Assembly (NCBI GenBank): GCA_964016885.1
Contig: OZ024740.1
Span: 183,582,001-183,646,000 of the forward strand
DNA: 64,000 bases
Source: Eledone cirrhosa
Lineage: Eukaryota
Direction of reading: 5' to 3'
The stretch's first letter is position 1, and each line of letters opens with the position of its first letter. The notes beneath the pieces are model-generated. The model worked only from the letters and a program-made list of their open reading frames with translations. It did not search any database and had not been told where the DNA came from. Made by a program: the position numbers and the translations under genes. Below are positions 1,007 to 55,744 of the stretch, in pieces.

Positions 1007-3117
1007 CTATCCGTTAGGGTATAACGTAGGGCTGTAATACAGGAAAGTTTTGTGCAATTTATGTTTACAAGCCGAAATTGCCTCAGATTTTTTGTTTAAG
1101 ATGTGGTCTGTGGCGTAGAGTATTTCCAGGGCCTCAGCGGCGCAGAGGTCACATGGTCTTTTATTTCCATTATACGATCTAGCCCTAGCTAGGATCTCCC
1201 AGTGTAACTTATATTGGGTGTGGTTGTCTTTTAGACTCCAGATATAAGCTGAAACTGACGTCATATTCCTTCTTAGAGGGTAACGAAAAGAATGGGTATG
1301 CATGTAAAGACGCTGCTTGAAACTATTGGCGGTTAACCCTATGTAGGCCCTACGGGACGTGGGTGTTACAACCTTACATTTGTAGACAATGTTACTAGAG
1401 AGGCATTTCCCGGATAGGGGACAATCAGCCCGATTCCCACAATTACAGTTAGTACTAACTACAGGGTTACACGTGTTACTACGGCTAGGTATTTTAGCTA
1501 AATTTGAAGCTGTGATGTTATGTGCAAGGTTAGGAGTCGTTGAGTAAGAAATTTTAATAGTGTTTCTATTAAAAATTTTACTATGTTTATGTGTAGGGGG
1601 AAATGCTTCGTAATAAGGGAAAGAAAGATCTTAGCTAATGGTGTGGCCACCTCCATATTATATGGTGGGTTAAACCAACAAATGCGACGGGAGCTATTTC
1701 TTCTAGGTCTATTCTCGTACTCTGTATATGCTACCTTATCGACAAATCCACTTCGAGCAAGAGCTTCATTGTAATAAGTGGAATGGTCGTTGAAAATGCG
1801 CTCGTTGGTGGAAAGACGGGAAAGCCTCAACGAAACGTTTTTTACCAGGTTCTTGGTTATGCTGGCAGGATGGTTGGAATGCTTACTTATGTAATTAAGC
1901 GTATCATTCGGCTTTCTATACGGGTAATGCAACCCATTCAATAAATTGAGGGTAACGTCGAGGTAATTAACGACCGAGAGATTGGCCTCAACCTGTATAG
2001 AGAGGTTGAAGCCTTTAAAGAAGGCTGTGAGTTCTTTTCTGAATCTGTCGCAAGCACGAGGTCCGCACTTAGTCATGGTCAAAAGGCCGTCGTCACGGTA
2101 CAAACCACCGCCCGCGTTGGGGAATTCGTCCTTGATAGAGAAAAGAAGGAAAAGGCCAATAAGATCAGTAACCTCGGCAGAGTCACTGGCGCCCATACTC
2201 ACGTCGAATGGGGTACTATTGGATTTTTTAATCCAAATAGAATCGTCGAAATTAATCACCGACTTTCGGGCATTAAGGATGACATCAACTTCGAAATCCT
2301 TAACCACTGTGAGTGTTTTAGCGAAATTGATAGCTCTAAGGAGAAGTGGTAAAGTGATGGAGGAGTAGTAATTGTTGATGTCGAATTAGATAAAACGGCA
2401 ATGTTCCTTGTTACATATGCCGTTGAACCAATCAATCACCGCGAAAGAATTGTTCCACAGTGCGAGAGGGGCCACATTTCTAATTTCAGGTATAATTCTA
2501 TCAAGAATCGTTTTACTAAGTCTACCTAAATCGGACTTCGTAGGGTTAATAAGCGGAATAGAGGGGTTGTTCTGAAAATTGGATTTGTGGTCCTTCAGGG
2601 TAAAGTGGGGAGAGATAGGGTCCAGGATGTTGAGATCAGATGTGATTTTAAACCCAGCATCGTTGATTTCATTGATGACACACCGATTAGTTTTACGGTA
2701 ATCCTTAGTTACAGCATTATGTAGTAGTTGATGGTAAGTACTGCGCTCCACTTGATATAGGTTGCCAGTTTTGTCGGAATGGACGTGCACGGCGTTAGAA
2801 TCCTTAATAGAACGAATTCTATTCTTCAGGTCTTTCTGGAAGGAATTGCTCCTATTCCGAAATTTGATACTCCGAATGAGTTCCAAGACATCATTTTGGA
2901 AGGGTAGCAATGCTGGGTTCCACGGAGGGTTATTATAGGTTTTAAATCCAAATTTGTCCTGCTTGTTGTCTGCTTTTCGCGGATTATTGAAATAAAAGGC
3001 ACGCCAACGCAACCTTTTAATGAACGCGTCTATTTTCTGTATCAGGAGTTTTAGGTATGTTTTCCTGCTTGGTACGGGTATGTTCTTTGTAGAAATATTC
3101 AGATGTTGTTTCTGCAT
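1007..3117 (-). pseudogene. Disrupted PLE ORF: reverse transcriptase + C-terminal GIY-YIG endonuclease
   Basis: ORFs 2386-3117, 1498-2307 (DVSMGASDSAE...GLYRDDGL, VNYLDVTL, WFNPPY) and 1007-1303. Manual translation upstream of the last gives CNC..CPLSGKC..NIVYKC..AYIGLTANSFKQR. Broken by stops/frameshifts. Confidence 0.9.
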
Positions 3118-3262
3118 GATGAATATAAGTCAGTAGAGTGCTCAACCGAAGGAGCCAAATAGTAATAATAATAAAATTGAAGACTAAAATCCAGAGAGGG
3201 CTCGATAAGGAAAATATATATCAAATATATAAGAACCGAAGAGCAAATATTTATTAAAATAA

Positions 3263-5208: not shown

Positions 5209-5250
<42 letters not shown>

Positions 5251-5397
5251 GCTCTGAAATAGCGATATATATGTGAATATAGACATAGAATATTCGAAAA
5301 TATTCTGTATGTTTATAATAAACATTTTGAAGACCTAATCGCTATAGAATAGAATACGTCACGTATTACAATTAGATTCTCGATAAAAGAAAGGGAA

Positions 5398-5440
5398 GTA
5401 ATCTACGCGTTTCATTCTTGTTAGAATTCATCAGGACTAC
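5398..5440 (-). ncRNA. Minimal type I hammerhead ribozyme (also 5708-5750, 6018-6060, 6328-6370, 6638-6680; truncated copy 6948-6982)
   Basis: GUAGUC-CUGAUGA-AUUCU aaca AGAAU-GAAAC gc GUA-GAUUAC: intact core, stems I and II, palindromic ACGCGU stem III. Confidence 0.92.
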
Positions 5441-7233
5441 ATATCCAGTGCTTTTATCGAGAATGACACAGCTAGAGACTTATAGAATACTTAGCTGTGT
5501 ACAGGAACTGGTTTGAAAGAGCGGTTGCCGGTCCGGCAGAAATTAGAAATTGGAATAAATGCTCTGAAATAGCGATATATATGTGAATATAGACATAGAA
5601 TATTCGAAAATATTCTGTATGTTTATAATAAACATTTTGAAGACCTAATCGCTATAGAATAGAATACGTCACGTATTACAATTAGATTCTCGATAAAAGA
5701 AAGGGAAGTAATCTACGCGTTTCATTCTTGTTAGAATTCATCAGGACTACATATCCAGTGCTTTTATCGAGAATGACACAGCTAGAGACTTATAGAATAC
5801 TTAGCTGTGTACAGGAACTGGTTTGAAAGAGCGGTTGCCGGTCCGGCAGAAATTAGAAATTGGAATAAATGCTCTGAAATAGCGATATATATGTGAATAT
5901 AGACATAGAATATTCGAAAATATTCTGTATGTTTATAATAAACATTTTGAAGACCTAATCGCTATAGAATAGAATACGTCACGTATTACAATTAGATTCT
6001 CGATAAAAGAAAGGGAAGTAATCTACGCGTTTCATTCTTGTTAGAATTCATCAGGACTACATATCCAGTGCTTTTATCGAGAATGACACAGCTAGAGACT
6101 TATAGAATACTTAGCTGTGTACAGGAACTGGTTTGAAAGAGCGGTTGCCGGTCCGGCAGAAATTAGAAATTGGAATAAATGCTCTGAAATAGCGATATAT
6201 ATGTGAATATAGACATAGAATATTCGAAAATATTCTGTATGTTTATAATAAACATTTTGAAGACCTAATCGCTATAGAATAGAATACGTCACGTATTACA
6301 ATTAGATTCTCGATAAAAGAAAGGGAAGTAATCTACGCGTTTCATTCTTGTTAGAATTCATCAGGACTACATATCCAGTGCTTTTATCGAGAATGACACA
6401 GCTAGAGACTTATAGAATACTTAGCTGTGTACAGGAACTGGTTTGAAAGAGCGGTTGCCGGTCCGGCAGAAATTAGAAATTGGAATAAATGCTCTGAAAT
6501 AGCGATATATATGTGAATATAGACATAGAATATTCGAAAATATTCTGTATGTTTATAATAAACATTTTGAAGACCTAATCGCTATAGAATAGAATACGTC
6601 ACGTATTACAATTAGATTCTCGATAAAAGAAAGGGAAGTAATCTACGCGTTTCATTCTTGTTAGAATTCATCAGGACTACATATCCAGTGCTTTTATCGA
6701 GAATGACACAGCTAGAGACTTATAGAATACTTAGCTGTGTACAGGAACTGGTTTGAAAGAGCGGTTGCCGGTCCGGCAGAAATTAGAAATTGGAATAAAT
6801 GCTCTGAAATAGCGATATATATGTGAATATAGACATAGAATATTCGAAAATATTCTGTATGTTTATAATAAACATTTTGAAGACCTAATCGCTATAGAAT
6901 AGAATACGTCACGTATTACAATTAGATTCTCGATAAAAGAAAGGGAAGTAATCTACGCGTTTCATTCTTGTTAGAATTCATCGAGAATCTAATTGTAATA
7001 CGTGACGTATTCTATTCTATAGCGATTAGGTCTTCAAAATGTTTATTATAAACATACAGAATATTTTCGAATATTCTATGTCTATATTCACATATATATC
7101 GCTATTTCAGAGCATTTATTCCAATTTCTAATTTCTGCCGGACCGGCAACCGCTCTTTCAAACCAGTTCCTGTACACAGCTAAGTATTCTATAAGTCTCT
7201 AGCTGTGTCATTCTCGATAAAAGCACTGGATAT

Positions 7234-7276
7234 GTAGTCCTGATGAATTCTAACAAGAATGAAACGCGTAGATTAC
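7234..7276 (+). ncRNA. Minimal type I hammerhead ribozyme in the inverted arm of the 310-bp array
   Basis: gtagtc ctgatga attct aaca agaat gaaac gc gta gattac read directly on +. Confidence 0.92.
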
Positions 7277-7728: not shown

Positions 7729-8347
7729 TTCGTTTCTGAATTTGTTTAGCAAGATTCTTTATCTGAAATCGTGTGTTGAAACCGATATTGTTATACTTTG
7801 GGAGGGTCATGTTGCCAATAAGAAACACACGCACCAGTTGCTTTCACTTCAATTTATTATAATAAATTTATAATAAATTTATAAATTTATAAGTTTCTGG
7901 TTGGTTGGTTGGTTCCACAACCAGATAGTTATTTATATATAGTCATAGTTCTTTCGTCACACACTATGTGACCTCTTCAGTGACTGGGGATTCCTTTCTT
8001 TGTTTCTGTGCCTCTCCTTTGTTCTGTGCTACGCCATTTTATTTCTGTGTGTGTGTTGTGTGCTCAGTCTGCGCATGCGCCACATCTGGGTGTCTGTGTG
8101 TATTTATGTTCATTTATTTATTTGTTTATTTACAGGTTACTGGTTGGTTGTTTGTTCTATGTGTGTGTGTGTTTTCATTTTGTCCTTAATTGTAAGTTAT
8201 GGTGTTGCTGTTCCCCTCATATTTTCTATTTAATTTTGGTTGTAATTCTTTTATGTTTATTGCCTCTGTAATTTGTCTAAACATTGCGTATTTTCTGTGT
8301 GTAGATTCTATTTTTATTTCTATGTTCTCTAATTTACTCTTGTGTTC

Positions 8348-8349
<2 letters not shown>
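7729..8349 (-). mobile_element. 5'-truncated 3' end of PLE family B, with HHR at 7941-7985
   Basis: Encodes [43 protein letters not shown], matching 24240-24406, plus 3' UTR/pLTR. Confidence 0.9.
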
Positions 8350-8427
<78 letters not shown>

Positions 8428-8555
8428 ATGTATATGTATATATATATATATATGTATATATATATGTATATATATATGTATATATATATATGTATATATA
8501 TATATGTATATATATATATACATATATATATACATATATACATACATATATATAT

Positions 8556-9754
8556 AAATAGGGCACCGGTCCCATCTGGGAAATGGCCATTCCCAGTGTG
8601 TAGGAAAGGAGCAGGCAGAAACTCCATTTTATGTCCCATATGCAAAGTATGGGTGTATAAAAGATGTAGTGGGATCACAGGTAAGATAACTAAGAATATA
8701 GATGTCATATGTGGCCGGCGCTCTGGTGCAATAAGTAGCAGCAAGTGCCCACCGAATACTAGCTCATTCCATTGCACAGATGGTTCTATAGAAATACTGG
8801 ACACCTTCCGTTACCTGGGTGACAAAATCAGCAGTGGGGGAGGGTGCTCTGAAAGTACAGTGGCTAGAGTCAGAACGGGATGGAAAAGGTTCAGAGAGCT
8901 TATACCACTATTGGCCGCTAAAGAGTTCTCTCTAAAAATGAAAGGCAGGCTGTATGATGCCTGCATACGAACAGTAATGTTCTATGGCAGTGAGACCTGG
9001 GCATTGTGTGCAGAGGATATACGCAGACTGGAGAGAAACGAAGCTTGCATGCTCCACTGGATGTGTAATAGTAATATACGTGAACGGCAAAGCATAAACG
9101 GACTAAGGGAGAAATTAGGAATAAGAGGGATCAGATGTTGTTTACTCGAGAGAAGACTACGTTGGTACTGCCACGTGATGCGCATGAAAGACGACAGCTG
9201 TATAAAAAAGTGCAGGGCGATAAAAATAGACGGTAGCCACGGAGTAGGCAGACCCAGAAAAACCTGGGATGACTTGATAAATTCCGACCTCACACACTTA
9301 CACCTCTCCAAGACAATGTCACTGGACCGAGATCTTTGGCGCTACACAGTTATACGGAAGACCCGCCTTGCGTAAGTACAAAGCGAAACCTCCAGTCAGA
9401 AGGCACCTCTAAAAAAATACACCCCGTTCCGCTTCCCCCGCCCCCATCCACACTACCCCCTTAAATGTGAAGTTATGTTGGTACAACAACATCCAGTCCG
9501 AAACAAATGAGGTCGTGTAGGTGTCATGACGAAAAAACACACAGTCCACGCTGTAATGTGGCCGTGTAGGTAACACGGTAAAAACCTCCCAGTCCACACT
9601 GTAAAAGTGGTTGGCGTTAGGAAGGGCATCCAGCCGTAGAAAACCCGCCAGGCAGTCCTGAACAAGACAACCAATCTTGCCTCAAGTGGTACAATTCCCG
9701 TCAAGACCCATGCTAGCGTGGAAAATGCACGTTAAACGATGATGATGATGATGA

Positions 9755-10943: not shown

Positions 10944-11942
10944 AGTTTTAATATAGATGAGATTCTACAGGACTAGAACTGTTTCATTCATTAGAAATCA
11001 TCAGGAATCTGGGTATCAAAAAATAAATATGGTATTTATAAGTCTCTACAAGTGGTAGGAGAGGGTGGGGAGTGGGATGGGTGCAGGTCATTGGTTGATA
11101 GAAAAGGGAATTCATTAAAAGCTAATTCTACAAAGCTATAGTTTATTTTTATTTTTATTTATATTTATTTATGTTTTTAGAGTAACAAAGGCAGACAGAA
11201 TTCTATAAACAGGTTCCGGATGGCATACCATTCCTTGTCAATAAGTTTCTCTTAAGCTAACAGATGTCTATAAAATCAGTGGGGGGTCAGTCATGGTCGG
11301 TAGAATTAAAGAAAAGGGAGATTCTTTAAAAGCTAAAGTCATTAAGGTTCTACTAAGTGACAAAGGTCTAGAGAATTCTGCAGACAGATTCAAAATACTG
11401 AGTGCATATCTTACTATTATCTTCGAAGATAATAGTAAGATATGCACTCAGTATTTTGAATCTGTCTGCAGAATTCTCTAGACCTTTGTCACTTAGTAGA
11501 ACCTTAATGACTTTAGCTTTTAAAGAATCTCCCTTTTCTCCCACTGATTTTATAGACATCTGTTAGCTTAAGAGAAACTTATTGACAAGGAATGGTATGC
11601 CATCCGGAACCTGTTTATAGAATTCTGTCTGCCTTTGTTACTCTAAAAACATAAATAAATATAAATAAAATAAAAATAAACTATAGCTTTGTAGAATTAG
11701 CTTTTAATGAATTCCCTTTTCTATCAACCAATGACCTGCACCCATCCCACTCCCCACCCTCTCCTACCACTTGTAGAGACTTATAAATACCATATTTATT
11801 TTTTGATACCCAGATTCCTGATGATTTCTAATGAATGAAACAGTTCTAGTCCTGTAGAATCTCATCTATATTAAAACTGTTATACTCTGCTATGTATTGA
11901 GTACCTTACTTACTGTGGTTACCTCCGATTCAACCCGGAATA
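10944..11942. mobile_element. ~930-bp spacerless palindrome carrying a hammerhead in each arm (family C)
   Basis: Centre ttcgaa at 11422-11427; arms 10944-11424 and 11425-11878; the right arm has ~60 bp extra tail; (TA)n flanks. Confidence 0.9.
11812..11862 (+). ncRNA. Type I hammerhead ribozyme, family C (mirror copy on - strand at 10960-11010)
   Basis: agattc ctgatga tttc taat gaat gaaa cag ttctagtc ctg ta gaatct: stem I AGAUUC/GAAUCU, stem III ACAG/CUGU, GUA triplet. Confidence 0.88.
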
Positions 11943-15602: not shown

Positions 15603-16042
15603 GCAAAAGTTCTATTTAAATTGTTGGTATACAACAAGCAAATATTATTATAACTGATATAAAGCACTCGACAAATATTTGGAGTAGATATACAATATTA
15701 ATAAATGGAAACTATATTTATTTCATTATATATATTTCAAGGATACCAAGTTAAATCATGGTATGCCTTCATCAGACAAAATACAATATATAACAGTTTT
15801 ACAAATAGATATTGACGTACACTTTCAAAAAGGTGACGTTGCTTTTGGAGGTCATCCGGATAGTGGTTTGTTTACTTTAGTAAGTCATAGTGTTAAGAGT
15901 ACGTCAATATCTATTTGTAAAACTGTTATATATTGTATTTTGTCTGATGAAGGCATGCCATGATTTAACATGGTATCCTTGAAATATATATAATTAAATA
16001 TATATGGTTTTATAAATATAGTTTCCATTTATTAATATTGTA
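15603..16042. mobile_element. Fold-back HHR element, family D (HHR - strand 15719-15783, + strand 15936-16000)
   Basis: Inverted arms around a ~70-bp spacer; tattttgt ctgatga agg.atgccatg...catggtat.cct t gaaa tatata ta; (TA)n flanks. Confidence 0.85.
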
Positions 16043-16091
16043 TGTATATATATATATATATATATATATCCCATATATATATATATATATG

Positions 16092-16205
<114 letters not shown>

Positions 16206-16553
16206 CATATATATGTATATATATATACATATATATATATATACATATATATATAAATATAAAAACAAATAACGAAACGAAATTAAATTTCGTTTCGCTT
16301 CTAACTCACTTTTGTATGACTGACGCTTAAACAATTAAGTTAAAGTGTACATCTACATATGTATACGGAAGTACTAGTATGCATATAAATACACACATGT
16401 ATACATATGTACATGTACCGAGTTTTTCACTAGATACTTTACAGTGAGTGTCCAGCTAGTCTGTATGTAAACAAACAGACGAACCGGGTTTTAAAGTCAT
16501 ACGAGTTTTCAAGGAAACACACTTCCTCTATTCTCCAGAGAGCCAGACAGGAA

Positions 16554-16594
16554 TATTGGACTAGTTTCGATGTTATTACATCTCATCAGCAATA
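16554..16594 (-). ncRNA. Minimal type I hammerhead, monomer E1 (GUC)
   Basis: UAUUG-CUGAUGA-GAUGU aaua ACAUC-GAAAC ua GUC-CAAUA. Confidence 0.9.
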
Positions 16595-16905
16595 ATAACC
16601 TATCTTCCGGCTTCTCTGGAGAATTGTAAAAGCACATATCGTTATATGCTTTTTCTATGAAAATCAGTAGTGGGCAGACTAATTTGCATAGAACGTGAGT
16701 CATTGTACGCGCCGGTTCAGCGGAAACGATAAAAACAAATAACGAAACGAAATTAAATTTCGTTTCGCTTCTAACTCACTTTTGTATGACTGACGCTTAT
16801 TATAACGCCCGCTTTGTCCTTTTGTAAACAAACTGAACAGACTGAATTTATGCCGTACGATGTTAAGGCAACCACGTCACCTTTTTGTTCAACACTGACA
16901 CAGGA

Positions 16906-16948
16906 ACGATGTACTAGTTTCAAGCTTGTTAGCTATCATCAGCACCGT
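16906..16948 (-). ncRNA. Minimal type I hammerhead, monomer E2 (GUA); + strand copy at 17247-17289 has C3U
   Basis: ACGGUG-CUGAUGA-uAGC uaacaa GCUu-GAAAC ua GUA-CAUCGU. Confidence 0.88.
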
Positions 16949-17457
16949 ATACCCTTCTGCCAGATGGTTGAAAGTTCGAAAGTATATACTGTCCTTATGA
17001 AAATTAACGGCTGAACAGCCTAATTCACATATCGGGTGAGTTCAGTCGGCCAGGCGCACCGAAAACGATAAGTTGTAATAAAATGAAAACGAAATTTCAT
17101 TTCTCACTCTTAGTATGGCACTTACTTAAATGTAAGTATGTATGTACACGTACATACATATATGTATACAGACGTACAGTAGCATGCATATATATATATA
17201 TACATATATATACATTCGAACGTTCAACCATCTGGCAGAAGGGTATACGGTGTTGATGATAGCTAACAAGCTTGAAACTAGTACATCGTTCCTGTGTCAG
17301 TGTTGAACAAAAAGGTGACGTGGTTGCCTTAACACCGTACGGCATAAATTCAGGCTGTTCAGTTTGTTTACAAAAGGACAAAGCGGGCGTTATAATAAGC
17401 GTCTGCTAAACTGATACGTACATATATGTATGTGTACCTGTTGTACCTGTATGTATA

Positions 17458-17497
<40 letters not shown>

Positions 17498-17659
17498 TGC
17501 TACTGTACGTCTGTATACATATATGTATGTACGTGTACATACATACTTACATTTAAGTAAGTGCCGTACTAAGAGTGAGAAATGAAATTTCGTTTTCATT
17601 TTATTACAACTTATATATATATATATTTATATATATATATATTTATTTATATATATTTT

Positions 17660-18125
17660 TATACTTGGGGAGGGTCATATTTGTGTAATAGTATTGCTAG
17701 AATTAATAACAGAACACACTCACTGTTTGGTTGGTTTTCGCTTCTGTGTCTTTTAGATCGGTTCATTTAATTTATTGAGTCGTCAATTTTGCCATTGACT
17801 GACCAATGGCCAAAAATACAGATACTATATAGACACAAATAGATATATATAGTCTATCAAAGTTCTTTCGTAGCACATCTGCAACATCGTCAGTGGCGCT
17901 ATTATGTTTCCTCCCATTGCATTGTATGCTTACGCCATCTTCATTTAGTCTGTTTATTTATATATTTATTTGTTTATTTATTTGTCTTCTATCTTAGTTT
18001 ACTAGTGTGTGTTTATATGTGTTTGTATTTATTGTGCTTGTGTATGTATATTTATTTATTCATTTATTCATACTTCATTTAGGTCAGTGTTGTTTGTTTG
18101 GGTGTTGTTGTTATTCCATTTATGT
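17660..18125 (-). mobile_element. Diverged PLE-B-like 3' UTR/pLTR remnant with degenerate HHR (17857-17896)
   Basis: atactt.gggagggtcat, agttctttcgt and tacgccatc motifs shared with PLE-B; minus strand CUGACGA...GAAAG aa CUU. Confidence 0.6.
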
Positions 18126-18155: not shown

Positions 18156-18191
<36 letters not shown>

Positions 18192-18196
<5 letters not shown>

Positions 18197-18650
18197 ATTA
18201 AATAAATGGAAAACTATATTTATAAAACCATATTTATTTCATTATATATATTTCGGGGATATCATATTAACAATATGCTATGCCTTCATCAGACAAAATA
18301 CAATATAAACAGTTTTATAGATAAATAGATTCGACATACCGTTATAACACCGACTTCATTTGAAGAGGTTTAAGCTGGCAGTTAAACCTCTTCAAATGAA
18401 GTCGGTGTTATAACGGTATGTCGAATCTATTTATCTATAAAACTGTTTATATTGTATTTTGTCTGATGAAGGCATAGCATATTATTAATATGATATACCC
18501 GAAATATATATAATGAAATAAATATGGTTTTATAAATATAGTTTTCCATTTATTTAATATTGTAAATATACTCCAAATATTTGTCGAGTGCTTTTATATC
18601 AGTTATAAATATTTACTAGTTGTACCCAACAATTTTAAATATAACATTCC
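18192..18650. mobile_element. Fold-back HHR element, family D (HHR - strand 18235-18300, + strand 18455-18520)
   Basis: Near-perfect ~180-bp arms around gctggcag at ~18374-18380; right arm extends ~85 bp further. Confidence 0.88.
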
Positions 18651-19069: not shown

Positions 19070-20774
19070 ATTTATTTATATATATTTATATATATATGTT
19101 TATATATATTATATATATATTTAGTTATATATATATATATATTTATTTATATATATATACACATATTTATTCATATATATATATTTATATATATATATAT
19201 ATATCGTTTCTGAATTTGTTTAGCAGGATTCTTTATCTGAAATTGTGTGTTGAAACCTATATTGTTATACTTTGGGAGGGTCATGTTGCCAATAAGAAAC
19301 ACACGCACCAGTTGCTTTCACTTCAATTTATTATAATAAATTTATAATAAATTTATAAATTTATAAATTTCTGGTTGGTTGGTTGGTTCTACAACCAGAT
19401 AGTTGTTTATATATAGTCATAGTTCTTTCCTCACACACTCTGTGACCTCTTCAGTGACTGGGGATACCTTTCTTTGTTTCTGTGCCTCTCCTTTGTTCTG
19501 TCCTACGCCATTTTGTTTCTGTGTGTGTGTTGTGTGCTCAGTCTGGGCATGCGCCACATCCAGGTGTCTGTGTGTGTTTATGTTCATTTACTTATTTGTT
19601 TATTTACATGTTACTGGTTGGTTGTTTGTTCTATGTGTGTGTGTGTTTTCATTTTGTCCTTAATTGTAAGTTGTGATGTTGCTGTTCCACTCATATTTTC
19701 TATTTAATTTTGGTTGTAATTCTTTTATGTTTATTGCCTCTGTAATTTGTCTAAACATTGCGTATTTTCTGTGTGTAGATTCTATTTTTATTTCTATGTT
19801 CTCTAATTTACCCTTATGTTCTATTTTAGCATGTTGGTAGAGTACAGATGATTATTTATTATCTTGAAGGTCTGGCCAGTGTTCATTTATCCGTTCCCCT
19901 ACACTACGAGCTGTCTCACCTATGTACACTATATTTTTGTCTCTACATTGTCCTTCAGTACATCTTATGCTATACACTAGATTTCTAGTTTTACAGTTAA
20001 TATGGGGGCTAATTTTACAGGTTATACATTTCTTATCTATACATGAGGTTCTTTGAAAAGGGTATTCTTGCTAATAAGTGTGTTTACGGAGGTACCTGGT
20101 CTTTCTACTGTCTTAATATTGAGTTTACGTTTATTTAGGGCCCTTCTAAATTTGTAAGCTCATTCACCTCTAGGGGTTGTATCGATGAACATTACACTCT
20201 GGTATTTATTGCTATCATACCATGAGTTTATTCTATTAGCCTTGTTCCTAGTTCTTTCTATTCTATTCCACAATTTGCTCCTATACAAGGGGCAGGTCCC
20301 ATTTATGTCATTATTTACCATTTTTTCCCATTTGGTTCTGGCTCCTCTATACACTCTGATTTTATCTCTCTGATTGTAGCCAGAGAACTGCATACGGTGG
20401 ATGAAGTGTTGTATGTGTCTCTCTAGTTCTTCGGGTTGCACATGCGGGAAACATTTCTCATCACCCGTACCAAATCCGCAATCAGTATGTTGATTTTGGT
20501 ATGGTCCGAAACGGCCGAGTTTCGGTGGATCAGATGTTTGGAAGTCATGGGTTTGGCATAATGGGAATGGAGGATTTGTTTTTGTTGTTAATGGTATCTA
20601 ACCAGAGCTCTGTGTCTAGTACAGGTAATCGATGGTTGGGGTGTTTACTTGGGTAGTCTATAGTAACTCTAATGCTCTGGTTGTGGAACCAACCAACCAA
20701 CCAACCAACCAGAAATTTATAAATTTATAAATTTATTATAATTTTATTATAATAAATTGAAGTGAAAGCAACTG

Positions 20775-23700
20775 GTGCGTGTGTTTCTTATTGGCAACCT
20801 GACCCTCCCAAAGTATAACAATATCGGTTTCAACACACGATTTCAGATAAAGAATCTTGCTAAACAAATTCAGAAACGAAATATGTTCTGTTGTCTACGA
20901 AAAACCATAACATCTCGACAATTACACTTCATAAAAGAATGTGCCTCATCCCGAGTTTACACCAACACCATCAACACCGACGTTACAAGATTACAACTCA
21001 CCAAAAAACAAGCAGATAGGCTAAAACGAACATTAATTCTAAACATAAAAAAGATCTATAGAGAATTAAGTCATCAAGAAAAACATAAGCGTAACCTAAT
21101 ACAAGAAATAGCTAGGATCACTACACCAAGAGAGAAACTAATATTCATAAGCCTTATACGCCCTGAAGAACAGTACATTACTCAAGAATGTGATAAGCAC
21201 TTTAACAAGAAACTAAAGTGGCTTAAGCAGATAAAGCTAAATCAGGATACTATAGAGAATACCAATAGATATCCCGACAAAATTGACGGTATAAATATGG
21301 CCGACACCTCATTAACAGAAGAGTTCAACAACAACAACAACACAAATATATACGGTAACACAAGAATAGATGACGATGAGATGTCTGTGTTATGTTTACC
21401 TCCGAAATTTGCGACATTCAAGAAGGTAAATATGATTAGTTGTCTGTCAGAAATAGATAAATCATTTACAAAACTACGCTGGAGCCTCAAAAACAAAAAC
21501 AAAAGCAACAATATACGCACACACATCCCAACAACAACAGACACACAGACACAAACAACAATAACAACAACACACACACCAACAACAACAACAATAACAA
21601 CATACCCAGAAACAACAACAGACACGCAGACACAAACAACAATAACAACACACACAACAACAATAACACACACGGAGACAACAACAACACACATCAACAA
21701 CAGAACACACACATTCAATGCCTCTCACCACCACCACAATCTTAACAAACACACAGAGACAGAAAACAAGTAATGACAGTAGCACAGAAATCCCAGATAT
21801 AAGGGAAATTAATAGGATTAAAAAGAGAAGGGAGACTAAGGACAAAGAGAATAACCAAGACGAACACACAGACACACAAAATAGGGTAGATAACAACAAT
21901 GAGCCAGTGGAAAGAGACAGGAGTAATTGTGAGAGACATAGAAACAACCATGAGGCTGTTGGTGGAAATAGAAATAGAAACAACACAACTAACAATAACA
22001 ATAGCACTAGTACACATAAAGCAGCAGCCTGGAACTCTACGTTTTATAATCCCTCCGATAAATCATTCGACCTGCGACGAGTCCACGCCACGACATTACC
22101 ATTTAACAAACGCACGCAATTGCCGTTGCAGGTCGATGAACAAACAGAAGCACAATTTAGTATAGCTAGATCCGAAATTAGAAATATTATAGAACAGTAT
22201 AGCAAGAAGCATAATAGAATGGAGGCCCAGCAACTGGGAGACAAATCTGCAAATGGCTTGCGTAAGCTCATGCAGCGCTCGCGTAATTGAGAGATAGCAT
22301 GCTTTCCAAAAGACAAGTCTGGCAGAATGTCGGTTGACAGCCTGCCAAACTACATTCAGGCAATGCAACCCCACATCACTAACACAAGAGAGGTAACACC
22401 ACAGGAGCATGAGGATTGAGAAAAAGCCCTCAAGCCCATATGGTGATGTGGACGAATATAATGCAGCCCAACAAAAGGACTGCCAACAACTTCCAGGCCT
22501 GGAACAATGACGTGCCGGCGTTGTATGGGCTTCGAAAAGACTATAAAACGGACTGTGACCCTGTCGCGGGACCACCAACACGGTCAGTCTGCGGAGCTAA
22601 CATTGCTAGTAACTACAGACTGTCCTACTTCCTCTCCCTGATCATACGCCCCATCATTAAAATGTCACCAGATGTATGTGACAGCACGGAGGATCTCCTC
22701 AGAAGTATCGGCGTGGGTAACCGATCTGGGGACCTAAAAAACTGCATAATAGGCAGTATCGATGTTGTGTCCCTATATCCATCTATTGACGTGGATTTTG
22801 CTGTGGAGAAATGCGTAGAAATGATCAGTGAGAGCAAGGTTGCGTTCCGTGGGATTGATACCAGTGAGCTGGGACTCCTACTTAAGCTTATCTATTGTAA
22901 TAATTACCTAGACACATATGATCTTAGCAACCTGTGCCCTACAAGACCAGCAAGAGGCAGACCACCTACCATTACCTCAATGGCCAATAAAACCCACACA
23001 GATAGATGGAACGGGTGGACCAGAGCCATACGGACACCCGAAAACCACGATGAACTGAAGAAAATGATTGCACATGCGGTAGGGGCCAGCATAAAACTAA
23101 CCCTTAAGGAACATATGTTCAAATTTAATGGAAAAACATATGCCCAAGAGGAAGGAGCAGCCATTGGTGTTAGCATTGCAGGCGACATAGCTAACTTATT
23201 CATGGTATGGTGGGACAGTAGAGTTAAACTTAAACTTAAAGAACAATTAGAATACCCCTTAACTACGTACTCCCGCTACGTAGATGATATAAACATCGTA
23301 GTTAAGACACCCCCACTAGAGAACAGTCAGGAACTAGAGAAAAACACAATGGAAAGCATCCAGCAAATAGCAAACTCCATCCAACAGAGAATTAGAGTTA
23401 CTATAGACTACCCATGTAAACACCCTAACCATCGATTACCTGTACTAGACACAGAGCTCTGGTTAGATACCATTAACAACAAAAAACAAATCCTCCATTC
23501 CCATTATGCCAAACCCATGACTTCCAAACATCTGATCCACCGAAACTCGGCCGTTTCGGACCATACCATAATCAACATACTGATTGCGGATTTGGTACGG
23601 GTGATGAGAAATGTGTCCCGCATGTGCAACCCCGAAGAACTAGAGAGACACATACAACACTTCATCCACCGTATGCAGTTCTCTGACTACAATCAGAGAG

Positions 23701-24406
23701 ATAAAATCAGAGTGTATAGAGGAGCCAGAACCAAATGGGAAAAAATGGTAAATAATGACATAAATGGGACCTGCCCCTTGTATAGGAGCAAATTGTGGAA
23801 TAGAATAGAAAGAATTAGGAACAAGGCTAATAGAATAAACTCATGGTATGATAGCAATAAATACCAGAGTGTAATGTTCATCGATACAACCCCTAGAGGT
23901 GAATTAGCTTACAAAGTTAGAAGGGCCCTAAATAAACATAAACTCAATATTAAGATAGTAGAAAGACCAGGTACCTCCGTAAAAACACTTATTAGCAAGA
24001 CATACCCTTTTCAAAGACCCTCATGTATAGATAAGAAATGTATAACCTGTAAAATAAGCCCCATATTAACTGTAAAACTAGAAATGTAGTGTATAGCATA
24101 AGATGTACTGAAGGACAATGTAGAGACAAAAATATAGTGTACATAGGTGAGACAGCTCGTAGTGTAGGGGAACGGATAAATGAACACTGGCGAGACCTTC
24201 AAGATAATAAATAATCATCTGTACTCTACCAACATGCTAAAATAGAACATAAGGGTAAATTAGAGAACATAGAAATAAAAATAGAATCTACACACAGAAA
24301 ATACGCAATGTTTAGACAAATTACAGAGGCCATAAACATAAAAGAATTACAACCAAAATTAAATAGAAAATATGAGTGGAACAGCAACATCACAACTTAC
24401 AATTAA
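20775..24406 (+). pseudogene. Disrupted PLE-B ORF: N-terminal region, RT, GIY-YIG endonuclease
   Basis: ORFs 20775-21773, 21718-22290 and 22416-24089 (SIDVVSLYPSI, GAAIGVSIAGDIANLFM, YSRYVDD, LPVLD). After a frameshift: [41 protein letters not shown]. Confidence 0.92.
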
Positions 24407-24605
24407 GGACAAAATGAAAACACACACACACATAGAACAAACAACCAACCAGTAACATGTAAATAAACAAATAAATAAATGAACATAAACACACACAGAC
24501 ACCCGGATGTGGCGCATGCGCAGACTGAGCACACAACACACACACAGAAACAAAATGGCGTAGGACAGAACAAAGGAGAGGCACAGAAACAAAGAAAGGA
24601 ATCCC

Positions 24606-24650
24606 AGTCACTGAAGAGGTCACAGAGTGTGTGACGAAAGAACTATGACT
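24606..24650 (+). ncRNA. Type I hammerhead, family B (copies on - strand at 7941-7985 and 19415-19459; degenerate at ~61141-61184)
   Basis: agtca ctgaaga g gtcac agagtgt gtgac gaaag aa cta tgact. Confidence 0.85.
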
Positions 24651-24838
24651 ATATATAAACAACTATCTGGTTGTGGAACCAACCAACCAACCAGAAATTT
24701 ATAAATTTATAAATTTATTATAAATTTATTATAATAAATTGAAGTGAAACTCCTGGTGCGTGTGTTTCTTATTGGCAACATGACCCTCCCAAAGTATAAC
24801 AATATATATATATATTTATTTATATATATATATATATA

Positions 24839-25344
<506 letters not shown>

Positions 25345-25473: not shown

Positions 25474-28400
25474 TCATCATCATCATCATCTTTATTTAAC
25501 GTCCATTTTCCACGCTAGCATGGGTTAGACAGTAGTTGTCCCAATTGAAACAAGGTTGGTCGGATGACCATGTCTTGCTCATATAGGACTATCTGGCAGG
25601 TTTTCTACGGCTGGAAGCCCTTCCTAACACCAACCACATTTACAGTGTGGAACTGGGAACGTTTTACCGTGTTACCTACACGCCAACAATACAGCGTGGA
25701 CTTTGTGTTTTTTTCTCGTGACATCTACACGATCTCGATCTCGATCTCATTTATCTCATTTATTTGGACTGGATGTTGTGGTACCAACATTATAGAGAGA
25801 GAGTGGTGATGGTGGGAGTGGGAGGATAGGGTAGGGGTAGTTGATTGGGGTGTATATTTGGTTAAGAAGTGCCTACTGACTGTAGGTTTCGCTTTGTACA
25901 TAGGCAAGGCGTGTCCTCTGTATTACTGCGTAGCGCCACAGATGTCGGTCCAGTGACATTGTCTTAGAGAGGTGTAAGTGTGTAAGGCCGGAATTTATCA
26001 GGTCGTCCCAGGTTTTTGTGGGTCTACCTACTCCGTAACTACCATCAATTTTGGTCGCCCTGCACTTTTTTATACAACTGTCGTCTTTCATGCGCATCAC
26101 GTGACCATACAAATGTAGTCTTCTCTCGAGTAAACAGCATCTGATCCCTCTTATTCCTAATTTCTCACTTAGTTCTTTTATGCATTGCCGTTCACGTATA
26201 TTACTATTACACATCCAACGGAGCATGCATGCTTCGTTCATTTCCAGTCCATGCAGGTCCTCTGCACGCAATGCCCATGTCTCACTGCCATGTAGCATTG
26301 CTGTTCGTATACAAGCATCATACAATCTGCCTTTCATTTTTAGAGAGAAACCTTTTGTGGCCAACAGCGGTATAAGCTAGCTGAACTTTTTCCATCCCGT
26401 TCTGACTCTGGCTACTGTACTTTCATAACACCCTCTACCACTGCTGATTTCGTCACCCAGGTAACGGAAATCGTCTACTATTTTTATAGAACCATCTGGG
26501 CAATAGAAGGGGCTAGTATCCTGTGGACACTTGCTACCTATTTCACCTGAGCATCGGCCACATTTAAAATCTACGTTCTTAGATAATTCACCTGTGATCC
26601 CACTACATGTTTTATGTACACATACTTTGCATTTGGGACATACAATTGAATTTCTGCCTACTCCTCTCCTACACATTGAGCAAGGCCATTTCCCTGAGGG
26701 TACCTGTGCCTTATTTTCCTTTCTACAAACCAGGACTTTAGTCTTAGACAAGTTAACTTTAATGCCTTTTGATTCTAGGCCATGCTTCCATGTTTGGAAT
26801 TTCTTTTCTAGTTCAGCCATTGATCAGCTATGAGCGTTAGAACATCTACGTATAGGAGTTCCCATGGGCAGCCGGTCTTGAACTCATCTGTTATAGCCTG
26901 AAGGGCAATAATAAATAGGAGAGGTCCAATCGACAGAGACTTGGTGAACACCAACTTTTACACTAAATTCTTCACAATATTCATTGTTAATTCTAACCTT
27001 ACTGACTGTTTCATTATACATAGCTTGTATAGCTCTCACAAGCCATTCATCTACACCTAGTCTTCTAAGAGCCCACCAGATAATGGAGCAGGGGGACTCT
27101 GTCAAAGGCTTTTTCCAGGTTTACAAATGCTAAGTATACGGGTTTACTTTTAGCTAGGTACTTCTCTTGTAGTTGTCGTACAAGGAAAAGAGCGTCTGTG
27201 GTACTTTTACCTGACACAAACCCAAACTGCATTTCATCTAGATCAATTCGCTCTCCGATTAGTTGCGCTATAACTCGTTCTGTGACCTTCATGACCTGGT
27301 CAACTAACTTAATGCCTCTATAGTTTCCTCTATCTAGCGCATCTCCTTTACCCTTGTAGAAGTTAATGATGATGCTGCTACACCAGTCTTTTGGTATGAC
27401 CACATTCTGTATTACTTGGGTAACTATACGGGTGACCATAGTATGTCCCACCATTCCGGATGCCTTTAACATCTCAGCAACTCTCTCCGAAGGCTCAGCT
27501 GCCTTGCCTGTCTTCATATCTTTGATTGCCTTACTTATTATACTACCTTTAACTTGCACCGCTGGTCCTTCTATTGGATCGATTCGGGGCAGAATATCTT
27601 TTTCCCACTTATTCTCCTCATTTAATAGTCTCTCGTAGTGACACTTCCAGGCTATCTTCTTATCAGCATCAGTGAGGGCAAGTAGACCGTTATCATTACG
27701 GTCACATTTCTCCCCGACAATATCACGGTTTTCCTTGACACATTGTCTAGCAATCCTGAATACCTCGCGTTTTTGGTCTTCGCGTTGTAGAACATGCTTT
27801 GACTTTCTATCCTCTGCTTCCCTTTTTGCAAGGTACACTTGTCTCCTAGCTTTTCTCCTGGCCACTTGATAGTGCTCTCTACTTCCCCCATCCTGCCATA
27901 CTTTCCAAGCCTGCTTTTTGGCCTTGATTGTCTCTTCTACCTTACTGTTCCACCACCAAGTTACTCTCCTCCTGCCAATATATCTGCTCCAGCCAAGAAT
28001 TGCCACTGTTCCTCTATATCGCACGTCTCTAATTGCTCTTCCTTATTGTCAAAGGCATCAAGTAATAAGCTTTTAAATTTGTCACTGGCTATGAAGTCCT
28101 TCAACTTCCATATTCTTCTCCTCAAGGTAGACCTCCTCTGTCGTCGAGTACGTCTATTTCTGACTGTGAGGTCACTAACTACTTGGTTATGTTGGGAAGT
28201 GCATTCTTCACGGGAGAGGGATTTAGTATTTACAACATACACTTTGTCCCGTCTTCTAGTAAGGATATTATCTATCTGGCTGACGTGTTCCCCTGATCTA
28301 TAGTTTAACAAGTGGTTTTCACGTTTTTTGAAGTTTGTGTAACAGATAGTTAGGTTATTGGCGTCACAGAATTCCAGGATTCTGAAGCCTTCCTCATTTC

Positions 28401-29050
28401 TATATCCAACCCATAGCCTCCATGGATTCCATCATAGCCATTACTATGTTGCCCAACGTGGCCGTTTAGATCGCCAGCAATAATTAGGTAGTTGCTGTCG
28501 GTTATTTGGGAGGTAGTGTGCATTGGCGTCTCATAGAACCTCTTCTTTATAACGTCAAGTAGATCAGATTGGGGTGCATAAGCAGATATTATTGTCACAG
28601 TAGTTTTATTTAGAACTAGCCTTATTTTAATCATTCTGTCATTTACTCTATTTACGTCGATTACCTTATCTACCCATTTGTCAGCTAACATAATTCCTAC
28701 TCCACCCAGTCCGTTGTCGTTTCCCACCCAGAACAGTTTATAGCATCGTGTTTTACCCACAATGAATCTGGCAGACCCCCTCTCCACCTAGTCTCTTGAA
28801 TACAACAAACATCAACTTCTTTACGTGTCAATCATCTCTACAACCTCATTTGAGCGACCTTTTAATGTGCCTACGTTCATGGTACCAACTCTGAAGTTGG
28901 GAGGGTGGGATAGATGGGTTAGAGGGGCAGGGAGGGGTGTGGGAGACTGAATTATGTTGGTCATTTGTGTCTGGAATAGAGAGGGGTCTTTGTATTTTCG
29001 TCCTGCAGCAGGAGGTGAATTTAACTTTATCTGTGACATCGTCATTGAAT
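25474..29050 (-). mobile_element. Near full-length degenerate RTE-clade LINE (APE endonuclease + RT)
   Basis: VGTMNVGTLKGR, GVGIML, ISAYAPQ, IAGDLNGHVG, SQIDNIL, GNYRGIKL, QFGFVSGKSTTDA, LEKAFDRV, HGSETW; (GAT)n tail at 25474-25490. Confidence 0.93.
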
Positions 29051-34500: not shown

Positions 34501-34574
34501 AGTTCCCATAAAAAGTGAGAAGCCAAAGAGAAATGGATATCAGACCTGTGCAAAAACATTGTAGCTAGATTAAA

Positions 34575-37068
34575 AAAATGGTACCAGCAAGGCTGCTTAT
34601 GTGGCCAGAGAGTCGTGAGGGTTCGAGTAGGCCAGGTTCCACTCTCAGTGGAGATGGCGTGGCTGACGGCAGCCGTCCTCGCTCAGGTTGAAGATTCAAC
34701 AACCATACTCAACGTCATACGAATAAGACAGGAAAATTGGACAGTGTCGGGGATGGAGCTAATCATCCAAGCAAACCACGAAAGCGTTGAGGTCATCCCC
34801 GATGTAATAGACCTGAACGACGGCAGCCATCTACCAATGACTGTCGAAGGTAGGCGCCCAAGGTCTCATGGATGCGGTGACAAGACGCACCTTACGGCAT
34901 TCTGCCCCAAAATTACCAAAACAGGCACGCGCTCACCCCTTCTCCCCACGCCGTGCCCCGCAACTGGAGCAGACAGACAAACAAAGAACACAGTGGCAGA
35001 AGAGAAATCACCATCCCCAACAACAAAAACACCATCTCTTCCACCACCCACAAAACCAATGAAAAGCATACCCCTTCCTCATATAGCCAAATCGGACAAG
35101 GAGTGCGATGAGGCCGAAGAGTGGAGAACTATTCCAACAAAAGAAAGGAAGAACTCCCTACCCTCATCCCCCCCCCCCCAAAAAAAGAGGAAGAAAGAAC
35201 ACTAAAAAAAAGAAAATGAAAACAACCCCACCTCCTCCACCACCATCAACAGCCACACACCCACAACCACCTACACCATCAACACCACCACCATCACCAC
35301 CACCACCACCCTTACCATCTACCCCATCGTCACCTCCAACAACACGACAGCAAACACAGAAAACACCAACACCCAAACAGCAGACACAATACACAACCAT
35401 AGACACAGACAACACAAAGCTTTTAAATAACGTTCAACATCACAGAAACAAACTACGTACAAACCAACAAAATTGCACACCCCCTACCCACATAAAAATA
35501 ATAAAAATTACACAAAAAAATTACATAACATTTAAAAAAACGTTTCCCACATCAATTGGAGACTACCGAGGGAACATCACCAAAAGAATATTCACGGATA
35601 TTCTCGTGGAGAAACCGACCAATGGTCGGAGGGATGGATCACCCACCCCCTTCCTAAAGAAGAGCCACAGGTAATTTTTTGTACCTCTCCCCTCTCACTG
35701 GTTTTCCTCCTATCCTAGCCATCATGGCTACTCTCAGAATAGTTAGCATAAATGTACGTAGCCTGGGGTCGTCTTGGAAGCAGGGGCACCTGCTGAACGA
35801 TCTCAGGTCGCTAAACATAGATGTGGTGGCCATCGGCGAGACCAGAATCTCCGAAGCACAGGCCTTCGCACCGATATTCGGTGGCTACGATGTGTACGCA
35901 TCTCCCAGCCTTCCTGGATCGGGGGGAGGAGTTGCTGTTCGCGCTCATGCTACGACATCTCCACCTCTTCCTCGACGGTGATCAGGTGTGGTCGCCGTTT
36001 GCTAGACGCGTCTTTCCCCAGCTCATCTCCTTGACGGAGCTGCAGTCTTGGGTCAAGCGAAGACCGAGAGGGAGCGCTTGGAGACTGGAATGTCTTCATC
36101 GCTCACAGCTCTCGACCAATCGGGCAATATGATCGGTGGAAAATCCACCTTGGCGTTCTATAGAGGATTAGTGGAGTGGAAGAGCGACGACGTATTTGGG
36201 GGAAATTCTAGGCGTCGACGAAAATCAACTAGCCAATCTCTTTGGAAGAACTTTCGGGCCGGGGCCTATGGACAACTTCCAGAATCCCTGGCCTGGCAGT
36301 GCTACCGAGGAGCTTTGCCGGTTCGGAATATATTCTACAGGCATGGAGGTGCCGTCAGATGGGCATGTCCGAGATGCGCACAGGGCGACGAAACCGTCTT
36401 GCATGTACTCGTCCAGTGTCCGAGCATTGCTGACTTGTGGGTTTATGTCGAACACCTGCTGTCGCGTGTAGAACGGATCCAGCTATCAGCTGAGTCCAAC
36501 GTGAGGATTGCCCCGCACTCTTCCTTTGGTCGGGAAGGGCAGGCAGTTTTTATCTATCTGGTTGCCATGGCGAAAGAGATAGTATGGTGGACGCGTCTGA
36601 AAGGGCTGAAGACGAGCACTTACCTCTTCGGTGACGCCCTGATTAACTTTTTCCAATTTCATTTGAAAAGGAAAATCAGGGTAGAGAGGGAGGTGCTCTC
36701 TTCCCAGGTTTTTGTTGAAAGATGGGTGAGAGAGGCAAGAATGGCCTGAGTGAGTGGACCTACTCTAAGTATATGCCTGTAAATTGAAGGTGGAAAACTG
36801 GGAGAGAGCATTGCCCTGGTGGTTAGGGTCACCGTGGCTTTTTTTAATGGGCTTTCTCCACGATGGCCCTTGGAAGCCTCCCCCCTATTGGGGAATTTTT
36901 CATTGTTCTTTTATTACATCCTCTGTTTTTTTTGTTTTTACACGCAGAAATACCCATTTGTACCGTCCTGTATTTTCCTGTACTGTCCTTAATGTCTACT
37001 TTGTGTAAACCCTTGTGGTTAATAAAGAAAGCATTATTATTATTATTAATTATTATTATTATTATTAT
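34575..37068 (+). mobile_element. L1/Tx1-like element with internal deletion of most of ORF2
   Basis: ORF1-like 34615-35205 (VEGRRPRSHGCG..HL..FCP knuckle); ORF2 start MATLRIVSINVRSL..DVVAIGETR at 35724; C-terminal CPRC..ETVLHVLVQC at 36048-36749; aataaa + (ATT)n tail. Confidence 0.82.
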
Positions 37069-54200: not shown

Positions 54201-55252
54201 AGAGGTAGAAGATGAATAAGATAGTTGAATAACATCCATGAGATCAGCTGGCCTGACTTGGGGATCTTGTTGGATCAATTAGAGACAGTTGTTTCTGACA
54301 GGATCCGCTAGTAGGAGTATTGGTGAACCCATAGCCCTCACAGGAATAAGTGGGCGAAGAAGAAGGATTTAAAATACACATAGTAAAGAAAATGGAAAGC
54401 AAGCTTAGCTATGATCTACATGTGTAGTTTAGTACTGTTAAAATAATTAATATATATTAATTCACATTGAACCACTATTTTCCGATAGTTGACAGTAGAT
54501 TTGTATTTTCAAATAGAAGCGGTTTCTTTCATGTCAAGTATTCTCTTCTTTTTTTTTATGATGAAGGTGATGTCGATATTACAACATTTCCCCAGTTATT
54601 TTCCGACATTTCTGTTACACACATACATACATCGATCTATGTATATAAAAAATAGGTTTGGTCACCAAAATACCCTGTGGTGTATATTTTGTTTGAGATA
54701 ATATCTCTTTAGACCATGGAGAACTCAACAAATTAATATATTATTTTAAGGTCCCATAACTCCTAGCAAAGTCGTAGGTGTGCCATATTGGCATACAGCC
54801 TTTCTAGATAATTTTTTAAACATGGCAGAGCCCATCCACTCTCTTGTTCTAAATATAACAGATTTCTTCCATAGAAGGATAGAGAATGAGAAAAAGGAAA
54901 TGAGTAAGAGATATAAAGCAAGAATGGGCTCCATGTATTAGATTAGAATTTTTTCATCAACCTCGAATGGATGAAAGGCAAAATTGACATTGAAAGGATT
55001 TGAACTGAGAAAGTAGGGAGCCAAAACAAATGTCACAGAGCATTCTATATGATTTTCTAACAACTCTACCAATTCATTACTTACAATTAATATATAGTTA
55101 TACATAAAATAAGCACTAGTCAAAGTGTTAGTGGAAGGATAAATATATATATTCTTTTAGGTGATAACCTAGCATGGCCACAATCTAAAGACTGCAACAA
55201 ATAAATAGTACAGAGAATACATGTGTGTGTGTGTATATATATATATATATAA

Positions 55253-55602
55253 GCAAAGGGATATTTAATTTGTTGGTAATTCAACAAATATATTAATAAC
55301 AGATTTGAAGCGCTCGACAAGTTTTCTGAAGTATATATCAATAACATTAATAAATGGAAACTATATTTATAAAACCATATTTGTTCTATTATATATATTT
55401 CAAGGGTAGCATAACTTTGGTACGCTCTCATCAGATAAAATACAAAGTTTGTTTTATAAATAGTGACATGTCCAGGAATCAGACCTTAACGGTTCAACGG
55501 AACTTGAACCGTTAAGGTCTGATTCCTGGGTATGTCACTATTTATAAAACACACTTTGTATTTTATCTGATGAGAGCGTACCAAAGTATTAATATCATTG
55601 AT
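55253..55602. mobile_element. Fold-back HHR element, family D (diverged)
   Basis: Arms around aacggttcaacggaacttgaaccgtt (~55488-55513); tcatcag at ~55428 and ctgatga at ~55567. Confidence 0.8.
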
Positions 55603-55744
55603 ATATATATATATATATTCCCATGGGCATGGGCTGACGTTGAAGCATATATATATATAGTATTCACCACTCCCACCTCCACCTGACCCATCCATATAGC
55701 TCCCAAGAGAATAGGCTGAACCATTCATCTAGTGAAGCCTCTAG

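Follow-up and report, generated by a model that had tools for sequence, protein, structure and literature searches.

Non-LTR retrozymes of metazoans have been described by Cervera and de la Pena 2020 (PMC7229834), in PMC4209133 and in the preprint of Li, Clavereau and Pollet 2026 (bioRxiv 10.64898/2026.07.22.740005), and the features of EN+ Penelope-like elements (PLEs) are given in PMC11167929 (Frangieh 2024), PMC3846280 (Arkhipova 2013) and PMC8557442 (Craig 2021). According to the available excerpts of these papers, the Penelope 'tail' comes from a pair of internal sites at which the RT starts; both strands of the target are cut and extended (PMC11167929), and the tail is found on one of the inverted repeats (PMC3846280, PMC8557442). 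It has also been reported, in the excerpted text of PMC3846280, that a Penelope copy was attached 5′ into another element by microhomology and that microhomology-mediated deletions occur in Penelope copies.

An insert in which two related units, E1 and E2, are joined is present in the window, as the whole analysed stretch of 64,000 nucleotides of Eledone cirrhosa DNA is called here. The first-pass annotation of this DNA had described the insert as a chimera of two related ribozyme monomers and explained it by template switching between two co-expressed retrozyme-like RNAs. The E1 and E2 units align collinearly at 62% identity (312/505 columns), and the homology extends beyond the hammerhead, with z values of 3.5–7.7 in each of four non-hammerhead segments (1,000 shuffles). 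Both are noncoding, with a longest ATG frame of 62–64 codons and a GC content of 36–38%, and their circles show strong predicted self-pairing (circular MFE z = −11.2 and −8.0, 40 shuffles each). Searching the 3.0-Gb genome gave 8,812 exact matches to a 23-mer of E1, 13,612 matches to the E2-type hammerhead pattern and 454 to a 20-mer marking the E2 subfamily with the junction word. The genome search for pure arrays that the first pass had proposed was successful for both units: pure E1 tandem arrays occur, for example, in sampled stretches L162 (at least 14 units) and L007, and pure E2 tandem arrays in L035, L042 and L143. A fixed E1-E2 unit is ruled out by these pure arrays together with the single-copy junction. 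E1 and E2 are separate, high-copy families; both look retrozyme-like and fit the metazoan non-LTR retrozymes. Within E1, the subfamilies E1a and E1c differ by 11% and have alike arm-to-arm divergence of 0.5–0.9%; a single opposite-arm pair was as divergent as 4.9%, its insert having an internal deletion. An E1 internal deletion, an intra-family rearrangement, lies in the TA-rich block at L028 1850–1870.

The features of the locus are given below in window coordinates; the RNA sense of the E1 unit is the minus strand.

16041..16258, no strand: left (TA)n target tract, without an E2 head remnant
16259..16728, minus strand: E1 unit of 470 bp, young subfamily E1a; its outer end is the distal start site (unit position 1)
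16259..16328, minus strand: E1 'tail', between the distal (1) and proximal (~70–75) family-wide ends
16554..16594, minus strand: E1 type I hammerhead, with CUGAUGA, stem II GAUGU/ACAUC, GAAA, the palindromic ACUAGU and GUC
16729..16799, minus strand: second, partial E1 unit (positions 1–71), identical to 16259–16329
16792..16799, no strand: 8-nt microhomology GACGCTTA, joining E1 64–71 to E2 191–198
16792..17215, minus strand: E2 left arm (unit positions 191–465, then 1–148)
16906..16948, minus strand: E2 type I hammerhead, with CUGAUGA, GAAA, U-U at the base of stem II, ACUAGU and GUA
17207..17215, no strand: centre junction of the two E2 arms, a short TA-rich overlap
17207..17614, plus strand: E2 right (inverted) arm, unit positions 386 to 1; its outer end is the distal start site
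17247..17289, plus strand: hammerhead of the inverted E2 arm, with the core change C3U at 17253
17612..17656, no strand: right (TA)n target tract

It can be seen that the E1 monomer of about 470 bp noticed in the first pass is a real unit at 16259–16728, and its restart is real too, with the first 71 nt repeated exactly, starting at 16729 and not at 16731 as had been given (off by 2). The switch into E2 at an 8-nt word was likewise recovered at 16792–16799, and the sequence of the inverted arm at 17207–17614 bears out that E2's own head precedes GACGCTTA there. The E1 'tail' contains a predicted 13-bp hairpin at 16270–16298. The E2 unit is 465 bp long, and the outer part of the E2 left arm, expected at about positions 60–190, is missing. 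The inverted E2 arm is 97.5–98% identical to the left arm, and rare variants at E2 unit positions 80 and 219 are common to both arms; these shared variants make it likely that both arms came from one template.

The hammerhead positions and cleavage triplets of the first pass (16554–16594, GUC; 16906–16948, GUA) were confirmed on the minus strand. The predicted cuts lie between 16559 and 16558 in E1 and between 16912 and 16911 in E2. A search of the whole window against Rfam at the gathering score gave no match, so the hammerhead call rests on the motif, the pairing and covariation. With a regex demanding a near-intact core, CUGAUGA was present in 117/118 E1 and 126/131 E2 motifs. As had been claimed, the core and ACUAGU are kept and the stems covary, but the stems are not entirely different: of the five core-proximal pairs of stem I, two are identical and three are changed yet paired, and in stem II two pairs are identical and two are altered on both sides, with the basal G-C replaced by a U-U mismatch in E2 (128/131 E2 motifs). 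The C3U change was seen in 1/131 E2 motifs, and judging from the core the inverted-arm hammerhead is likely inactive. Two variants were found among the pattern matches: an E2-related subfamily in which C-A or C-G replaces U-U at the base of stem II and the cleavage triplet is GUU, and subfamily E1c, which has a GUU triplet with a covarying stem II.

When stem I is cross-paired between E1 and E2, two good pairs are followed by mismatches, and the duplex energies are −5.1 and −5.7 kcal/mol versus −10.7 and −9.7 kcal/mol otherwise; because of this mismatched stem I, an E1/E2 heterodimer is predicted to cleave poorly. The composite could yield a cut-to-cut RNA of 353 nt, whose reformed hammerhead would have a mismatched stem I and so be a crippled ribozyme. 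In tandem the composite carries a hammerhead of E1 and another of E2, with the cross stem I mismatched, and it has a third hammerhead with C3U; it falls outside the 'active retrozyme' of Li 2026, which has two consecutive same-family units with complete hammerheads.

The E1/E2 junction has one match in 3.0 Gb at up to two mismatches, and it left no found progeny. It is off-register: E1 64–71 is joined to E2 191–198, and E1 64–71 aligns to about E2 52–60, which rules out a junction at homologous positions. A junction at E2's own second start site is ruled out as well, since that end lies at about 56–60 and not at 191. An exact match of at least 8 nt covers 190 of the 218,550 E1 × E2 break pairs (0.09%), and this rarity by chance argues that the microhomology is a real joining signature. 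At same-family centre junctions, an overlap of at least 2 nt occurs in 43/87 and one of at least 8 nt in 5/87; microhomology is usual there, so by itself it says neither RNA switch nor DNA repair. In E1 and E2 alike, GACGCTTA sits just beyond the TA-rich block of the unit, at its outer border, and a break in that block could be resected to the 8-mer. An E2-to-E2 jump onto the same word, an intra-family rearrangement, was observed in L149 (G000:C1470:48645-48679); a pattern census of jumps onto the word gave three rows, none of them E1, and is incomplete in that a first letter C falls outside the pattern.

The 34 listed E1 departures after position 71 were sorted by eye: about 14 lead into an inverted E1 arm, about 10 into TA and 5 are point changes, and the remainder comprise 2 local duplications, 2 others and 1 into E2, which is the E1/E2 locus alone; the pattern used does not catch breaks at which the next letter is A or the last place of the pattern is G. 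E1 position 71 as a truncation hotspot is unsupported, as these 34 departures stand against 8,812 read-throughs; no locus from one E1 search ended at 71, and it was the query itself that selected L083 and L085. Crossover probing covered two of the words shared by E1 and E2. At the longest in-register shared word (12 nt), inter-family crossovers numbered 0/6 departures for E1 to E2 and 0/93 for E2 to E1, with 5,450 (E1) and 7,996 (E2) read-through copies. Signs of a recurrent E1/E2 chimera family were sought and not found, with one junction copy and 0/99 crossovers at the 12-nt word. A DNA-level exchange between E1 and E2 loci lying far apart, whether by ectopic recombination or by templated repair, would have thousands of 62%-identical copies to draw on, but homology-driven exchange would be in register and not 64–71 to 191–198, and the nest of TA-targeted inserts around the locus makes neighbours a simpler source; we consider such an exchange very improbable.

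The geometry of the inserts was taken from 144 merged genomic stretches, about half of them the best-scoring matches to the E1/E2 locus and the others in genome order from pattern lists, which gave 70 inward-facing end pairs, with 80 ends unpaired and five stretches without a call. Two positions are fixed for the RNA-3′ ends of the arms, namely 1 and about 70–75 in the E1 unit, or 1 and about 56–60 in the E2 unit, with a predicted hairpin between the two; the arms are 5′-variable and tandem or inverted, and the outer ends lie on TA runs in nearly all inserts listed. In same-family two-armed inserts, distal and proximal ends are paired in 67/69 cases (29 E1 and 38 E2 inserts in all), the other 2 being proximal+proximal, and distal+distal ends were found in 0/69. 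The E1/E2 locus is the only distal+distal case among the 70 pairs; for this end rule as a whole, p is 4e-18 against independent ends. The regular pairing of distal and proximal ends suggests that one RNA is copied from both start sites, and we infer that a Penelope-type enzyme would do so onto opposite strands. As a separate observation, rare variants shared within an insert are most often T>C, which reads A>G on the RNA strand (36/140), whereas this class ranks fourth among segment-unique variants (77/845); this pattern is as expected from RNA-editing marks copied by RT, and it includes E2 unit position 80 in the window.

An assembly or read chimera, joining E1 and E2 copies at a short match in TA-rich sequence, would account for a unique junction amid long TA tracts and inverted repeats. 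Both outer ends are, however, exact family termini on TA tracts, the E2 arms share rare variants as in one insert, and across assembly contigs hundreds of Mb long many similar inserts, both tandem and inverted, are resolved, so that an artefact is the least probable origin of the junction.

The composite probably arose in two steps, in which a younger E1 arm was joined by microhomology to an older two-armed E2 insert, with a deletion between them. A Penelope-type RT-endonuclease would nick (TA)n and copy one retrozyme RNA, probably circular, from two start sites; copying onto two strands would have given an E2 insert of the standard form, its left arm begun at the proximal and its right arm at the distal start. 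Later, E1a RNA would have been copied into the TA tract on the left from the distal start, over at least 541 nt, and the E1 end would have paired with GACGCTTA inside the E2 left arm, with the loss of E2 positions ~60–190. The pairing may have taken place during 5′-end attachment or in later microhomology-mediated repair, two routes that the sequence cannot separate. Insertion of E1 into E2's internal TA run is ruled out, as there is no E2 head to the left of E1. Two steps are favoured because the junction is unique and off-register, without in-register crossovers, and because the E1 part looks younger and unjoined E1/E2 neighbours exist; the distal+distal ends are also as expected, because a separate E1 arm would have replaced the proximal-start left end of E2.

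The ages bear on this as follows. Rare unique changes number 2/525 in the E1 part and 11/686 in the E2 part, or 10 without one at the centre junction; the contrast of 2/525 with 10/686 has a one-sided p of 0.052 and a two-sided p of 0.079, and stricter counts give p 0.07–0.17, so the sequence weakly suggests that the E2 part is older than the E1 part at the composite. The two E2 arms of the composite differ at 6/291 columns, and four variants in E2 413–433 are without a sibling within one mismatch. The family medians of arm-to-arm divergence agree with this direction: E1 has 0.5–0.9%, and E2 has 2.7% in the genome-order stretches and 1.4% in the best-hit ones, though the ranges overlap. In ten E2 stretches with high arm-to-arm divergence that were inspected, the cause was mostly a separate insert next door or an alignment artefact, L112 and L114 aside.

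Unjoined E1 and E2 inserts lie in one TA tract in 2/143 other stretches (L053 198–2060 and L170 388–1436), adjacent but unjoined E2 and E2 inserts share one TA tract in L094, L136 and L046, and the window itself has about eight hammerhead-bearing inserts at 15.6–25.3 kb; such unjoined neighbours, together with the nest in the window, indicate that neighbours are common. The composite is thus most likely an ordinary by-product of crowded inserts and not a new kind of element. Several points weigh against the two-step origin all the same: the age contrast is weak and the E1 and E2 age ranges overlap; a deletion of at least 130 nt is needed; E1 ends at 71 more often join a TA tract directly (~10/34 listed); the end rule rests on 70 paired calls; and a search for an autonomous partner, covering the window and 30 loci of a single Penelope family, found none.

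Other elements were observed in the same window. A 310-bp tandem array (5.6 identical units) at 5245–6982, with an opposite-strand copy at 7240–7264, carries its own type I hammerhead with an ACGCGU palindrome and is a third retrozyme family. Another two-armed hammerhead family, with an AUAUAU-type stem III, is found at 15685–16050, 18185–18570, 25046–25330 and 55234–55611 and flanks the E1/E2 locus within the same TA nest, and an inverted pair of a further hammerhead motif lies at 10982–11004 (minus) and 11818–11840 (plus), a similar motif being seen once in L173–L202. A Penelope-like ORF with weak RVT_1 and GIY-YIG matches is broken by stops and frameshifts, and its 3′ repeat has a minimal hammerhead at 24611; the ORF and solo or related repeats occupy 20766–24800, 19250–19560, 17650–18100, 7785–7980 and 61382–62779. 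The RT of a second, very abundant Penelope-like family lies at 1007–3129 (minus), with 51,782 first-look candidates, many at 92–98% identity; a hammerhead regex found almost nothing in 30 loci of this 1007–3129-type family. Fragments resembling LINE-type RT/endonuclease elements appear in the ORF list at 8305–9375, 25873–28787 and 34519–36749.

In a one-step alternative, a Penelope-type RT would have jumped between hammerhead circular RNA families within a single insertion: the RT would have copied E1 RNA from the distal start and, once the cDNA end had paired with the 8-mer on an E2 RNA, gone on along that molecule. Synthesis on the other strand would have been primed on that E2 RNA too. This route is possible but rather doubtful. 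It needs no deletion; the 8-nt match exceeds most same-family centre overlaps (at least 8 nt in 5/87) and has a chance of 0.09%; the rare variants shared by both E2 arms mean that one E2 template could serve both; the families are homologous, with the same target and end geometry, and likely the same enzyme; and the age difference is not significant two-sided (0.079). Yet two RNAs would have to enter one complex, and distal+distal ends occur in 0/69 same-family inserts. Moreover, E1a and E1c, subfamilies of similar age, are unmixed within inserts (none mixed in 36 inserts with comparable opposite arms or in 48 with tandem units), no crossovers occur at the longer in-register word, and the E2 part appears older than the E1 part. 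Of the first-pass explanation, the microhomology join and the separate, homologous, retrozyme-like families therefore stand, and the switch itself is not favoured: the junction is unique and off-register, crossovers number 0/99, the ends are distal/distal and the ages differ, if weakly.

If a single-step jump had nevertheless occurred, the locus would preserve in the genome a case of recombination among viroid-like retrozyme RNAs and would represent a modular exchange of the kind that could found new ribozyme-circle families. It would also show, as an exception, that a complex in which a single RNA is normally copied from two starts can take in two RNAs. The background end rule is a more useful result than the fusion itself. 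In the Penelope literature, 'tail on one inverted repeat' is a qualitative statement; with the count of 67/69 it becomes a near-strict rule, under which the two start sites of a single RNA are predicted to be used for copying onto opposite strands.

Like the non-LTR retrozymes, E1 and E2 are noncoding tandem units with one type I hammerhead each and thousands of copies, with low GC, circles predicted to be highly self-paired and two related families per genome. According to the excerpted text of PMC7229834, U-U is likewise found at the stem II base of the axolotl HHR_Amex2, which cleaves, and does so better as a dimer. At 465–470 bp, E1 and E2 are longer than the 170–400 nt given in that text and lie within the 51–972 bp given in the excerpts of bioRxiv 10.64898/2026.07.22.740005. 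Two-armed inverted inserts with fixed ends, as formed by E1 and E2, are absent from the available text of PMC7229834, where the word 'inverted' occurs 0 times. The main text of the retrozyme papers, as far as it is available, describes no inter-family fusion, and the supplements may list cephalopod or chimeric cases; a literature search in which subscription journals were thinly covered found no inter-family retrozyme fusion in animals.

With the EN+ PLEs, as far as the excerpts of those papers go, E1 and E2 share two fixed RNA-3′ ends, a hairpin between them and a tail on one inverted arm, as well as 5′-variable arms, an AT-rich or microsatellite target and a hammerhead upstream of the start sites; the composite further resembles them in its microhomology join and probable deletion (PMC3846280). 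In contrast to the EN+ PLEs as excerpted, E1 and E2 have no ORF, and their tail is about 59–74 nt versus 30–40. A search for homology to the pLTR of an autonomous RT-GIY-YIG element, covering the window and 30 loci of one PLE family with 1.5 kb of flank, gave no match. The E1/E2 composite, with its two distal ends, is the exception to the tail-on-one-arm pattern.

LINE-1 template switching produces chimeric retrocopies, such as those of the U6-L1 type, which recur at many loci, and in L1 and R2 the 5′ attachment can be microhomology-assisted and accompanied by target deletion. The composite is like the U6-L1 chimeras in that two RNA-derived sequences are fused at a short match in one apparent insertion; unlike those recurring chimeras, its junction is unique, and its end geometry and the ages of its parts point to two events.
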